A program made the position numbers and the translations under genes. This document shows, in pieces, positions 25,658 to 29,148 of a DNA stretch of 32,000 bases (the first letter of the stretch is position 1; each line of letters begins with the position of its first letter). The stretch lies in contig CAYZRF010000006.1 in NCBI GenBank assembly GCA_964480775.1, positions 1 to 32,000 on the forward strand. Direction: 5' to 3'. The notes below the pieces were generated by a model. The model had not been told where the DNA came from, made no database searches, and worked only from the letters and a program-made list of their open reading frames with translations. Origin of the DNA: an uncultured Nitrososphaerota archaeon (GTDB lineage: Archaea > Korarchaeota > Korarchaeia > Korarchaeales > Korarchaeaceae).

Positions 25658-27070
25658 TTATCTAACTCCCTCCCTTCTTTGGATTCTGAGATATGCAAGA
25701 GGATTCTTTAGGCCGCAATCAGCCACGCATAAGCCTAACTCCTTCATTCTCTCGCAGGAATGAGGCAAATAGCCCTTTTCGCTTATCTGCTTGATTTGGT
25801 AAGCCGTTATCTTCTCCACGAACCTTGGATCGTTTCTAAAGAGGTCTATGAGCTGCTCTTCGGTCCATCCAGCCTTTTTCAGGTAAGCAACTAACGTAAA
25901 GCGAGCCGTATGAGGAAGGTGCTCTCCACTTTTCGCTCTCTCTATCAGCTTTTTCATGCAAGGAGGCGTTTGTATGGGGCCTTTCGGGATGAATCTCCTT
26001 ACTTTTACCTTCTTGTCTCCCTTTGACTTTACAAATTCCGCAATTTTGAGAAGATCAAGAAAGCTTCTCGCAGAGACAGGATCAAGAGTTCCCCAATAGC
26101 TAACAAACGGTAAAAGATGGCTCTGAGGATCCACTCTCTTAGCTCTCTCTCTGTTAAGCCTGAGTGGCTTCCAAAAGCTGAAATAGATCGATATAAGACC
26201 CTTAGGATGAGGAGAGAACAGAGCCCTTATTGTTCCCCTTTTTCGATAGAGCTGCTTATCGAACACGACAGGAAAGCCCTTCCAAGCCAGCCAATCCTCT
26301 AAATACTCAACTAAGGCTCTGTATTTCGATTGAATCTTCAGATTGAAGCTAAGATATTCTTCCAGATCCATTTCATAGATGAGTTCAGTAATGTCGAGAA
26401 GACCGTGGATTCCATTCCCTGAGATCTTCCAGAGAAGCTCTATTCCGTGCTTCCTTAGTTCTGAGTCTAGAATGGCAAGGGCCCTAACATCCCTCTGCGG
26501 ATCATATTCTTTCTGTGCGTTGAAATCAAGATCGAGGACAAAATCTGTGAATAAGGCATAGAATTGACCATTAAAAGCCTCTGGATGGCTCTTCTTCAAG
26601 TCTTCAACCGTAATAAGCAAGCTTGATGATTCTAAGAGATCCTTTAGGAGAGGGACGTAAATGTAACGTTGCTGGGAGACATGAAGGCATGGAGGACTGA
26701 AGCGGTCCACGTTCTCTATAACGAATCTCTTGAAGTGCTCCTTTTCTGTGAATATGTGCCACTTCGTGAAGCCCTGCTCCTTGTTACCCATTGAAACCTC
26801 TCTATAAGTGACGTAGGTCTTCCTGTTGTAGCGGAAAAAGCGCTGAACTTGGAGCCAATAAAGATCGATGCGGTTCTTGACGAAAGCTCGAAGTTTAATA
26901 GGATCCGCTTCACTATGATCGGTTTGGTTTGTTTGGTAGTTTGGTCGTTTTGGTAATTTGGTAATGTTTGAAGACAGACCTTTATTCTCAGAACATAGTG
27001 TGTCTTTGATTGTTACCAAATTACCAAATTCACCAAATGACCAAAGCGCTTCGTTAGTCCTTGGTTTCAT
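25658..27070 (-). CDS. Archaeo-eukaryotic primase (PriS-like AEP domain) fused to a PriL-type C-terminal Fe-S domain
   Basis: AEP motif I FVLDLDF. Motif II LWKISGNGIHGL. Motif III VVFDKQLYRKRGTIRALFSPHPKG. C-terminal PPCMKKLIERAKSGEHLPHTARFTLVAYLKKAGWTEEQLIDLF matches the PriL/p58 pattern (PxCMxxL...HLxHxxR...LKxxGxxxEQ). Further Cys residues: LPHSCERMKELGLCVADC. The first ~70 codons are low-complexity and coincide with the DNA repeats. Confidence 0.8.
   Translation of the reverse strand: MKPRTNEALWSFGEFGNLVTIKDTLCSENKGLSSNITKLPKRPNYQTNQTDHSEADPIKLRAFVKNRIDLYWLQVQRFFRYNRKTYVTYREVSMGNKEQGFTKWHIFTEKEHFKRFVIENVDRFSPPCLHVSQQRYIYVPLLKDLLESSSLLITVEDLKKSHPEAFNGQFYALFTDFVLDLDFNAQKEYDPQRDVRALAILDSELRKHGIELLWKISGNGIHGLLDITELIYEMDLEEYLSFNLKIQSKYRALVEYLEDWLAWKGFPVVFDKQLYRKRGTIRALFSPHPKGLISIYFSFWKPLRLNRERAKRVDPQSHLLPFVSYWGTLDPVSARSFLDLLKIAEFVKSKGDKKVKVRRFIPKGPIQTPPCMKKLIERAKSGEHLPHTARFTLVAYLKKAGWTEEQLIDLFRNDPRFVEKITAYQIKQISEKGYLPHSCERMKELGLCVADCGLKNPLAYLRIQRREGVR
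26923..27045. repeat. Iteron-like inverted-repeat array (candidate replication origin or Rep-binding site)
   Basis: Five TTTGGT units start at 26923, 26932, 26940, 26949 and 26957. They face four ACCAAA units at 27015, 27023, 27032 and 27040, with 8-9 nt periodicity. Perfect 16-bp inverted repeat: TTTGGTAATTTGGTAA (26949-26964) with TTACCAAATTACCAAA (27013-27028), 48-nt spacer. The spacer holds a nested AAGACA/TGTCTT palindrome (26971-76/27001-06). Confidence 0.75.
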
Positions 27071-29148
27071 GATTTTTCCCCTCCCTGTTCTGCTCCTCCT
27101 TCAATCAGCTTGATCTGATCTCTTTCTCTTGGTAGATCCGTTGAGAGCCTTCCTATCGGTTCAATGTGCTCGCAAGGTTGGGGATCGAGTATTCTAACGT
27201 AGATATCATCATCGTTCTTCTCAAGCTCTATTTTGAGCAGATCTCTAAGCTTCAAATTCAGATTTTCGAGATTCTTTCTTCTTCTTAGAAGACTGATGCA
27301 CTCAGAGAGGTAGTTGTATTCTTGAGGAACATAGGGTATCTCGGCAAGCCGTACCCGATCTCCATCCTCGACGTTTGGAAGGATCTCCCTCCTATAAAGC
27401 TCAATTGCTGAGATTATCTCTCTCAAATAAGCAGGCATCCTCTTGAAGAGTCTCTCGATCCTAAGGCCTATCTCTTCCTCATAGGACCTTGTTATTGCTT
27501 CAATCGAGTCCAAGTTGAGGTCCACAAACTCAGGGAGAAGCTCCTCAGCCTCTTTAAGGATCTCATCTATGGAATACTCTTTGAGGGCTATCCTATCCAA
27601 ATTTTCAACTATTGCAACATTAAGAGCAGCTCCTCTTATTCTGCGCTGTGCTCCCCTCCCATGCTCCCATAAGAAGGCTTTAACTTCCTCATCCTCTATT
27701 GAAGCTATTTTTTCCTCTATCTGATCTTCATATCCTTCAATAGGTTCTCCGAGCCACTTCTCAACTTTCTTGTCATAGTAGATCTTCCTTATCTCTGGAA
27801 GAGCATACTCCTCGACAGCTCTGAAGAACGAGACGGCTTCTCTCCATTCTTCCTCGACGTTTAGAGTTTCAGCCTCAACCCTTTGAAAGTCCTTTCCATA
27901 GACGATTAGGCCAAATCGCCTTCCCATGGCTGGGTTCTTGCTCATAGCCTTGATTATGGACCCAAAAGCCGTGGCTGGATCCTTTGATTCTCCTATCGGA
28001 TTTCCAAGTATCGCCCAAGGAGACCTTGACTTTACCAAAAACTCGGTTGCTGCCGTGGTTACCCTTCCCTCCCCTGTTTCAAGCACTTGGAACAAGAAGC
28101 GAAGGTTCTGCCTGAAGAACTGAGATTCCATCTGGTCGCAAGCTATGACAAGCTCGGAATGATGAATTATTCCAGGATAGACTTCGTCCGGACTCTTAGC
28201 ATAACCGAGGAAGGTGTTCGGACTGATTTTGTCGTATCTATGGCCTATCATCTCGTAAAGAAGAGACTTTCCAGTTCCTCCGTTTGTGAACTCCAAGGCG
28301 TGTGGATTATACTCAGGCCTTACTCCCCTGAGAAGATGGGCTTCCCAAACCAACTTGAGTCTTGAATCTTTCCTAGCTCTGAAAGAGAGGAGCCTATCGA
28401 CGAACGAAAGCCAGTCCATTTCTTTTAGAATGGAAGGGTCCTTAAGCTTGGGGATTGGTTTTAAAAGGAGCCTGGCCTCGGCTACTTCTTTTGCAAGGTC
28501 CAACTCTTCCTCTTTATCATTGCCATCCAGAAAGCCATGTTTACGCAGTAGTTTCTTTATCCTCCTTTTCTCGTTTTCAGGAAGGGCTTCTATGTATGGT
28601 CTAGCTTCCTCTGGATCAAGAACAACCTGTAAGGCCAAATCGTTCCTCCGGGGGCTTACAAAACCATCCGTATCCAGAACTAAGCGAGGAGCAAGGAAGA
28701 GGTCCTCCTTGATGCTCCAGAGCTTCCATAGGATTTCGACGCCGTAATAGAGACCTTTTTGATCGATTTTGGGAATAGTGTGGAAGAAGAAGGGAGAGAT
28801 GGATGCCACTCTAATGGGTTTGTTTACGGCATCCCTCCAATCTCCCCTCGGAATAGGATCCACAATTCTGGCGCCTATTTGTCTCAGAACTTCATTTAGA
28901 GACTTATCAATTTCCTCTAAGTCCAGCGAGGGAAGGAGGGAGTTATCGGCCTCTTTTATTAGCTTGAGAATCTCTTTTTTGAGTTCTCCCACCTTAACCT
29001 CGCTTTGTCTGGTGAATGGGCCCCATTCTCCATGCTTCCCCTTATACTCGAAGATTATGAAGTCTCCTTGCGCTCTGGATTCCTTTGTAAGAAGGAAAGA
29101 TTGCTTCTCGCTCATGAGCACCACCATCGCCCCATTAATTCTGTTCAT
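27067..29148 (-). CDS. Divergent MCM-like AAA+ ATPase (putative replicative helicase)
   Basis: Walker A [11 protein letters not shown]. Walker B-like [41 protein letters not shown] parallels the MCM region [38 protein letters not shown] parallels the arginine-finger region SRFDLIF. The stop overlaps the primase start (ATGA 27067-27070). In-frame ATGs at 29127 and 29115 are alternative starts. Confidence 0.55.
   Translation of the reverse strand: [693 protein letters not shown]

Follow-up and report, generated by a model that had tools for sequence, protein, structure and literature searches.

A divergent MCM-like AAA+ ATPase as the putative replicative helicase of an integrated element in an uncultured korarchaeon

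Introduction

Here we describe a gene carried by a 32,000-nucleotide (nt) stretch of DNA from an uncultured Nitrososphaerota archaeon, assigned by GTDB to the Korarchaeaceae (assembly GCA_964480775.1, contig CAYZRF010000006.1, positions 1 to 32,000; hereafter the window). The gene encodes a protein of 693 amino acids (aa), P0001, which was originally predicted, by eye and from the sequence alone, to be a highly divergent MCM-like AAA+ ATPase and the putative helicase of a mobile element. Comparison of its predicted structure and of its family profile with those of known ATPases supports the view that P0001 is a real, very divergent relative of MCM, one that is MCM-like without being an MCM. 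We further consider it likely, from the company that the gene keeps, that P0001 is the self-loading replicative helicase of an integrated element of ~14 kb, acting as a ring-forming AAA+ motor of the helix-2-insert/pre-sensor-1-hairpin clade.

Results

The P0001 gene and its domains

The 693-aa open reading frame (ORF) exists and lies on the minus strand, which the original prediction had not specified (Table 1), and all four sequence strings quoted in that prediction are present in P0001 (GGTGKS at residues 290-295, VIACDQ at 334-339, VLETGEG...ILGNP at 355-384 and GRRFGLIV at 409-416). Met1 falls within the overlap with the upstream ORF, which is read in another frame, and the true start may be Met12 at 29115, since residues 1-16 have a predicted local distance difference test score (pLDDT) below 50 and a relative of 79% identity begins opposite residue ~13. 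Conservation was followed in two alignments of the family, A1 and A2, the latter with 113 sequences. The most conserved family columns are those of the ATPase motifs, with K294, D338, N383 and R411 invariant or nearly so; G315, G326, E357, G359 and G409 are near-invariant as well.

Table 1. Features of the P0001 gene and of the element around it. Positions are those of the window unless given as contig positions; residues are those of P0001.
Feature	Position	Strand	Basis or remark
MCM-like AAA+ ATPase gene (P0001)	27067..29148	minus	ATG-to-stop ORF, translation, homologues, AlphaFold2 model
N-terminal beta-hairpin and two-helix subdomain (residues 17-107)	28828..29100	minus	pLDDT 44-73, low confidence
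OB-fold-like beta-barrel with helical insert (residues 108-235)	28444..28827	minus	position of MCM N-domain subdomain C
AAA+ alpha/beta core (residues 236-420)	27889..28443	minus	hhalign to MCM; VIA-align Z 14.2 to PfMCM AAA domain alone
Walker A TNGGTGKS (K294)	28264..28287	minus	aligns to MCM GDPGTGKS
Helix-2-insert-like beta-hairpin (residues 315-325)	28174..28206	minus	strands 315-319, 322-325 (DSSP)
Walker B variant IACDQME (D338, Q339, E341)	28126..28146	minus	aligns to MCM CIDEFDK
Pre-sensor-1 beta-hairpin (residues 360-374)	28027..28071	minus	strands 360-365, 368-374 (DSSP); hhalign to MCM
Sensor-1 Asn383 in LGNP	28000..28002	minus	aligns to MCM AANP; invariant 113/113
Arg finger candidate R410-R411 in GRRFG	27916..27921	minus	R411 aligns to MCM SRFD Arg; invariant 113/113
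All-helical lid/post-core region (residues 421-590)	27379..27888	minus	conserved FRAVEEY, RxRGAAL
C-terminal domain, winged-helix-like topology (residues ~591-660)	27169..27378	minus	strand/helix order
Single-chain primase: PriS-like AEP and PriL Fe-S C-terminal domain	25658..27070	minus	PF04104 3e-19, NCBIfam PriL 3e-33
Stand-alone Gins51 C-terminal (B) domain ORF, 76-90 aa	25426..25656	minus	PF22090 E 1e-14, 54 bits vs cut-off 27
150-aa ORF ending in CPxC...CPKCG zinc ribbon	29135..29587	minus	upstream; overlaps P0001 start by 14 nt
66-aa ORF	29618..29818	minus	conserved upstream of helicase in at least 4 other elements (loci L038, L043, L046, L094)
Two-fold symmetric array of 8-9-nt repeats (TTTGGTNA / TNACCAAA)	26923..27045		inverted and direct repeats
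721-aa protein, DNRLRE/CBM96 domain and Ig-like repeats	20976-23141	minus	largest other element gene
Tyrosine integrase gene	contig 33815-34966		outside window
13-nt exact direct repeat TCTCTCCAAGAAT	20852-20864 and contig C6 35025-35037 (L002:6026-6038)		~0.03 matches expected by chance

A template-free AlphaFold2 model of P0001, built on a 29-sequence alignment, has a mean pLDDT of 79.9 and a predicted template modelling score (pTM) of 0.70, with blocks at 73-96 in the ATPase core. Ahead of this core stand two subdomains. The first (residues 17-107) is present only in the closest relatives (P0001-P0003 in A1), and no fold match was found for it. The second, when residues 110-230 are folded alone, reaches a pLDDT of ~98; its weak structural matches are almost all oligonucleotide/oligosaccharide-binding (OB) folds, among them ExoVII, RPA, SSB, PriB, CST and Teb1, together with MCM N-domains at Z ~3, while Foldseek with the N-domain alone returned no match at E<=0.001. 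As modelled, the fold of the N-domain is compatible with subdomain C of MCM and not diagnostic of it.

The original prediction had described the N-terminal ~290 residues as free of a zinc motif and possibly novel. The first part stands: the only cysteines of P0001 are at 337, 617 and 659, with none before residue 337 to form a zinc finger of the MCM N-domain type. The novelty has to be tempered, as residues ~104-235 weakly resemble an OB-type barrel (Z<=4.2). Many relatives carry an N-terminal CxxC...CPxCG zinc ribbon at another place than the MCM zinc finger, and P0001 is without this ribbon.

Behind the core, the Arg of the lid motif RxRGAAL (R505, shared by 90 of the 113 sequences of A2) is a possible candidate for sensor 2. 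The secondary structure of the C-terminal domain by DSSP (strand 598-600, helices 614-622 and 627-638, strands 640-644 and 649-653) hints at a putative winged helix, as do two weak MCM_WH_arc matches in relatives (E 0.029, in a Pfam scan of 69 family members).

Structural comparison

A Foldseek search of the PDB with the whole model gave 407 matches at E<=0.001, the best at E 9e-9 over ~600 columns, and among the matches listed all were MCM subunits, from archaea, yeast and human and including MCM8/9. In a VIA-align search of 48,161 representative chains, independent of Foldseek, MCMs scored Z 14.2-16.6, with 270-337 residues aligned at a root-mean-square deviation of 3.9-7.1 over model residues ~112-557. 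BrxL, which is itself MCM-like in this alignment, scored Z 15.8, RavA 13.1, BchI 11.6, SCCmec Cch 11.5, ComM 10.5, SaPI Rep proteins 8-9.5, and the superfamily 3 (SF3) helicases NrS-1, ASFV PrimPol, D5 and PriRep1 7-8.2; the best 17 rows consist of MCM, BrxL, RavA, BchI, Cch, ComM and a MoxR-like ATPase. Whole-model alignments to MCM begin at residue 112-117 and reach residue ~550-557 in the lid, a region with no profile similarity to the MCM lid.

Both hairpins diagnostic of the helix-2-insert clade are found in the model by DSSP, the first (315-319/322-325) following helix 1/strand 2 and preceding the strand of Walker B, and the second (360-365/368-374) following the helix of Walker B and preceding the strand of sensor 1. 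The top structural neighbours belong to the same clade (MCM, MoxR/RavA, BchI/ChlI, YifB/ComM, NtrC, dynein). On the predicted model, P0001 is structurally a member of the helix-2-insert clade, with MCM first among its neighbours.

Profile comparison and ATPase motifs

For comparison at the level of sequence families, MCM alignments were made from the MCMs of 19 genomes of the host phylum and 113 further archaeal MCMs. With hhalign, a 29-sequence profile of the P0001 family matched MCM weakly (E 0.0045-0.022), and profiles of 69 and 113 sequences matched at E 2-4e-5 (probability 71-77%, residues 271-428). In the best of these alignments, with the 113-sequence profile (E 2e-5, probability 77%, residues 276-422), all catalytic motifs are in register, TNGGTGKS of the family pairing with GDPGTGKS of MCM, IACDQMES with CIDEFDKM and GRRFGLI with LSRFDLI. 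The alignment of the pre-sensor-1, sensor-1 and Arg-finger regions that had been drawn by eye is thus reproduced residue for residue. Control profiles built in the same manner gave E 0.018 for the family against MoxR (AAA_3) and E 0.0015 against Orc1/Cdc6, the latter over 27 P-loop columns only; MCM against MoxR gave E 8e-9. Profile comparison and the AlphaFold model agree in giving helicases of the helix-2-insert clade, MCM first, as the best matches. Both hairpins are predicted, and conserved residues of the family align with MCM at Walker B, sensor 1 and the Arg finger.

Walker A follows the pattern GxxGxGK[ST], with K294 invariant in A1 and present in 104 of the 113 sequences of A2. The hairpin predicted between residues 315 and 325 aligns with the helix-2-insert segment of MCM, is 6-7 residues shorter, and is flanked by the near-invariant G315 and G326. 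The sensor-1 Asn and the putative trans Arg finger have an MCM-like spacing, with 28 residues between N383 and R411. Walker B departs from the hhhhDE(F)D pattern: D338 is kept, Q339 stands in the position of the catalytic Glu, and E341 falls on the second Asp of DEFD. Within A2, 54 of the 113 sequences have D-Q-x-E and 13 have D-E-x-Q, the other D-E members having N, D or S at +3. In the alignment, the acid and the amide seem to be swapped between the P0001 subfamily (D-Q-x-E) and a distant subgroup (D-E-x-Q), and E341 may take over the catalytic role of the missing Walker B Glu.

Distribution of the family

Neither as a single sequence nor as a 29-sequence profile did P0001 match anything in Pfam, PHROGs, NCBIfam, PADLOC or the PDB chain sequences; in Pfam there was no match at E<=0.1, no Lon domain and no VWA partner domain. 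The label of the original prediction, an MCM-like AAA+ ATPase, holds by structure and profile and fails for the curated MCM family (PF00493, no match). Among AAA+ families, a Pfam scan of 69 family members matched MCM in two of them (best 3e-4) and Mg_chelatase in two (0.041).

A word-indexed search of one database found 28 homologues at E 1e-66 or better (34-79% identity), all of them unnamed or 'hypothetical', the few with a taxon label coming from metagenome-assembled genomes (MAGs) of Bathyarchaeia and Nitrososphaeria. An HMMER profile search of 1.8 billion representatives gave 530 clusters at E<=0.001, of which 238 reached E<=1e-30. Further loci came from genome, viral and metagenome collections, in Nitrososphaerota and Bathyarchaeales MAGs and in one IMG/VR contig. 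Among 50,697 phages and 72,556 plasmids, tblastn found no match to P0001 or to the distant member P0133; of the fusion protein P0147, only the DnaG part matched, to phage primases.

Of 43 genomes in the host phylum, 3 hold the helicase gene; none of the four congeners (71-93% complete) has it, and a cellular MCM is found in 39 of 41 genomes, the host itself owning one. Such patchy spread is the pattern expected of an accessory gene.

Two further observations concern the family. The member P0070 (1157 aa) contains a LAGLIDADG endonuclease domain at residues 451-527, by its look an intein-type insertion; insertions of this type are typical of replication proteins. The ESM Atlas hinted at a newer Pfam entry, PF27228 'MTBMA_p00010_2nd', named after an ORF of the plasmid pME2001, and this relationship was not confirmed: family-profile hmmsearch and hhalign against the 804-aa ORF of pME2001/pMTBMA4 gave no significant match, the best E being 0.098 over a post-core helix. 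PF27228 itself gave no match in any Pfam scan, the entry being seemingly absent from the Pfam copy used.

Primase fusions and neighbouring genes

The start codon of the primase gene overlaps the stop codon of P0001, and the archaeo-eukaryotic primase (AEP) motifs LDLDF and SGNGIHG are visible in its product. To count this linkage, 87 related loci were collected, 63 of which have >=700 nt downstream of the helicase gene, and a primase gene was taken as adjacent if its start, on the strand of the helicase gene, fell within -100 to +600 nt. By this measure, 37 of the 63 have a PriS-PriL/PriX primase gene immediately behind the helicase gene, often with a 4-nt overlap.

In other members of the family a primase is fused to the helicase itself, and these fused primases belong to two unrelated classes: P0024-P0026 carry an N-terminal PrimPol with PriCT-1 and P0034 and P0143 a PrimPol (the PrimPol/AEP class), and P0140 and P0147-P0149 carry a DnaG-type zinc finger, DNAG_N and/or Toprim domains (the DnaG class). 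The PrimPol-PriCT fusions first suggested that the family might be SF3 helicases of the D5/pRN1 ORF904/VirE/DUF927 type, the usual partner of PrimPol in archaeal plasmids. An N-terminal PrimPol-PriCT-1 is the classic SF3 architecture, and a viral fold library gives DUF927, DUF3987 and D5 proteins at E 1e-4 to 1e-3. This reading was dropped on the result of the structure search, in which SF3 structures stay at Z 7-8.2 against 14-16.6 for MCM. Pfam returns no SF3-type match for P0001 or its 69 scanned relatives, VirE, DUF927 and DUF3987 included, and the motif order is MCM-like, in that a helix-2-insert hairpin is present and the SRF-type Arg finger comes 28 residues past sensor 1; we regard SF3 membership as the least probable of the readings considered here.

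A Gins51 C-domain adjoins a helicase homologue in four elements, the present one and those at L046 (6821-7069), L050 (4102-5092) and L052 (6303-7436). In the present element its ORF comes straight after the primase gene. In L050 and L052 it occupies residues ~216-264 of a protein of 330-377 aa whose gene immediately follows that of the helicase homologue; the first ~215 residues of this larger protein have no match. It is plausible that the small Gins51 C-domain ORF serves as an adaptor to parts of the host replisome. Upstream, homologues of the 150-aa zinc-ribbon ORF precede the helicase gene in L046 and L047, the L047 copy (4747-5067) with an RHH_3 domain. This ORF and the 66-aa ORF may be origin-binding or regulatory partners. 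The upstream ribbon is not claimed as a detached counterpart of the ribbon fused in relatives, the resemblance (CPxC...CPKCG) being generic. In the IMG/VR viral contig L044 (7061-16202), a KaiC/RecA-like ATPase, an MCM-like helicase, a PriS-PriX primase and an intein-bearing PolB are encoded consecutively; farther along lies a 253-aa ORF that is PCNA-like by eye.

These neighbours bear on the idea that P0001 is a non-replicative helix-2-insert AAA+ protein of a mobile element, be it a chaperone of the MoxR/RavA type, a subunit of the chelatase type or a DNA-binding defence factor resembling BrxL. BrxL (Z 15.8) and RavA (Z 13.1) come within about 1-3 Z units of MCM, and two relatives have weak Mg_chelatase matches. 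The profile match to MoxR, at E 0.018, compares with 2e-5 for MCM; no PADLOC match and no Lon-like or VWA partner domain were found in the searches above; and the primase fusions together with primase, PolB and GINS-type neighbours indicate replication. We judge a non-replicative function very unlikely.

A candidate origin, the element and its host

The repeat array begins ~20 nt past the P0001 stop codon, inside the 5' end of the primase ORF, and is from its sequence a candidate origin. The fully syntenic sibling element L046 has an array of equal geometry in the equal place (5432-5561) with another core; the helicases of the two elements are 79% identical, and the cores of their arrays are TTTGGTNA in the present element and TTTCGTCA in L046.

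The left copy of TCTCTCCAAGAAT is intergenic and the right copy lies past the integrase gene, inside the 3' end of a TFS-like gene. The pair are candidate att sites that would bound an integrated element of ~14.2 kb. The G+C content is ~0.50 between 21 and 25 kb against ~0.40-0.43 in the flanks, and this shift, the tyrosine integrase and the presence of the gene in so few genomes of the host phylum and none of the congeners together argue for its accessory nature. The 721-aa protein is surface or adhesin-like, and small plasmid-like elements do not usually carry such cargo.

The MCM of the host is encoded by an open frame of 1357 aa (G000 contig C2 ~29945-32554, L003-L005) in which the Pfam MCM match falls into three separated pieces; the split match suggests an MCM with two inteins. 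Related genera have MCM frames of 1114-1479 aa. The host genome also holds two Orc1/Cdc6 genes.

Discussion

The label of helicase, given to P0001 in the original prediction, is backed by its gene context. The primase fusions, the PriS-PriL gene downstream, the Gins51 C-domain ORF and the iteron array at the junction of the helicase and primase genes all argue for a replicative helicase. The proposal builds on the fold as predicted, the motif register, the conservation of the family, the primase fusions and the gene linkage.

In its likeness to MCM (PF00493; SsoMCM, MthMCM, Mcm2-7, MCM8/9), P0001 combines the best structural match (Z 14-16.6) with the best profile match (E 2e-5), and shares with it the order of Walker A, helix-2-insert hairpin, Walker B, pre-sensor-1 hairpin, sensor-1 xxNP Asn and SRF-type Arg finger. 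A beta-rich N-tier ahead of the AAA+ tier and a winged-helix-like C-terminus behind it are predicted in P0001 as in MCM, and a PriS/PriL-type primase and a GINS-type partner are encoded alongside. P0001 differs from MCM in that it is missed by the curated model, has the shorter helix-2 insert and the D-Q-x-E Walker B, and lacks the Lys of the pre-sensor-1 hairpin and the zinc finger of the N-domain. It also differs in being encoded by a mobile element with no recent capture from the host, whose own MCM is a separate gene that appears to bear inteins.

Several results weigh against the reading of P0001 as an MCM-like replicative helicase. A PF00493 search of the whole genome matched the host MCM and two MoxR-like ORFs and did not match the P0001 locus. 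The score of the family profile against that of MCM (53) lies below that of MCM against MoxR (74), and hhalign finds no similarity between slices of the N-domain, lid and C-terminal domain and the matching slices of MCM. In terms of profiles, MCM appears as the best match, yet the family as further from MCM in sequence than MoxR is, so that the affinity is relative and not close. Taken alone, residues 104-235 have weak structural matches (Z 2.8-4.2), almost all of them OB folds, and the AAA+ module alone gives a near tie between PfMCM-AAA (Z 14.2) and RavA (13.1). MCM needs the Lys of its pre-sensor-1 hairpin for unwinding; at this tip P0001 has Thr365, and only 22 of the 113 relatives have Lys. 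In 26 of the 63 loci, no primase gene was detected by the model directly downstream. Finally, Q339 occupies the position of the catalytic Walker B Glu, and a Gln in this place normally blocks hydrolysis in AAA+ proteins; the E/Q swap may be a single evolutionary event, and the compensation by E341 is suggestive, not statistical.

Because of this Gln, the main rival is an ATP-switch initiator or loader that binds ATP, oligomerizes on the iteron origin, melts it and recruits the host MCM in the manner of Orc1/Cdc6, with little or no processive unwinding of its own. Q339 replaces the catalytic Glu throughout the subfamily, the C-terminal domain is winged-helix-like in topology, a complete MCM and two Orc1/Cdc6 genes are at hand in the host, and the Gins51 C-domain ORF could attract parts of the host Cdc45-MCM-GINS (CMG) complex. 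Against a mere switch, the invariance of the sensor-1 Asn and of the Arg finger speaks for hydrolysis, E341 co-varies with Q339, and both DNA-translocation hairpins and the OB-like tier are predicted. Fusion to a primase is moreover a hallmark of helicases, not loaders, and the Cdc6 profile match is confined to the P-loop. On balance we find an initiator unlikely and favor a self-loading replicative helicase.

For such a helicase we propose the following model. P0001 would assemble on the iteron array just past its own stop codon, probably helped by its C-terminal winged-helix-like domain and/or by the upstream ribbon-helix-helix (RHH)-zinc-ribbon protein, and would then melt the DNA and travel along one strand at the expense of ATP. 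We infer that it forms a hexamer, that it unwinds DNA with a given polarity, and that it recognizes the origin and contacts its partners. ATP would be held where subunits meet, with K294 of Walker A and D338 acting in cis and Arg411 in trans, and the DNA would be held by the hairpins at 315-325 and 360-374 in the centre together with the OB-like N-tier. The co-translated PriS-PriL primase would prime the unwound strands, and the small Gins51 C-domain protein could plausibly connect this minimal pair of helicase and primase with GAN and/or PolD of the host.

It is well established that mobile elements carry divergent MCM-like helicases, a class of which the P0001 family is an uncharacterized new branch. 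An AEP-MCM protein of a Bacillus cereus prophage was reportedly described by Samuels in 2009, and Cch of SCCmec, with DUF927, reportedly by Mir-Sanchis in 2016. Like P0001, whose role is inferred, the members of this class are divergent MCM-like AAA+ motors with which integrative elements replicate; in many cases they are fused to a primase or encoded beside one, and they lie near an integrase module and are probably self-loading at a nearby iteron origin, as is SaPI Rep. Bacterial AEP-MCM fusions and plasmid MCM-like genes have been described (PMC5862659), as have an 'MCM-like helicase' in a Bathyarchaeia virus (PMC10848311) and the Cch/DUF927 family in SCCmec, a thaumarchaeal element and the pT26-2 plasmids of Methanococcales (PMC6972569, PMC6563490), the pT26-2 Rep being termed 'MCM-like' (PMC6972569). 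The P0001 family differs from Cch/DUF927 in having neither a DUF927 nor any other Pfam match, and Cch (Z 11.5) and SaPI Rep (8-9.5) score below the cellular MCMs. PriS-PriL and Gins51 C-domain partners are not mentioned for the class in PMC5862659, PMC6972569 and PMC6563490. A limited literature search did not find a description of the combination of a D-Q-x-E Walker B, a short helix-2 insert, a zinc-free OB-like N-tier, a PriS-PriL primase and a Gins51 C-domain.

Two further systems invite comparison. BrxL of BREX (PDB 8emc) ties with MCM in structure (Z 15.8) over the N-domain and AAA+ module; P0001 differs in lacking its Lon-like C-terminal domain, a PADLOC match and BREX neighbours, and its context, with a primase gene and a GINS-like ORF, is that of replication. 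Plasmids of the pTN2 type, like the present element, place a single-chain PriS-PriL primase gene beside the helicase gene of a thermophilic archaeal element; the partner of the pTN2 primase is an SF1-type helicase, whereas the partner here is MCM-like. The pTN2-type module consists of the PolpTN2 PriS-PriL fusion primase and a helicase (PMC3973330).

Going one step further, we raise as a speculative possibility that the element encodes a compact 'CMG-like' replisome, in which an MCM-like motor with its catalytic Glu moved by three residues (from D-E-x-Q to D-Q-x-E) and a single-chain PriS-PriL primase would be linked to host GAN/PolD by a free Gins51 C-domain. If this were true, the contact of the GINS B-domain could be studied in isolation, and access would be gained to an MCM-like lineage whose distance from MCM is about that of MoxR, which could inform the origin of the MCM architecture.

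The family represents a new branch of a known class and no new principle, and its importance is moderate. Elements of uncultured thermophilic archaea (Bathyarchaeia, Nitrososphaerota, Thermoproteales and the present host) are often without a recognizable replication protein, and the present family, which comprises at least 530 clusters at 50% identity and escapes the copies of Pfam, NCBIfam and PHROG that were searched, would fill this gap for many of them. Packing three co-translated genes and a candidate origin into about 4 kb, the locus offers a natural test bed for the self-loading of an MCM-type ring, the relocation of the Walker B glutamate and the binding partner of the Gins51 C-domain.

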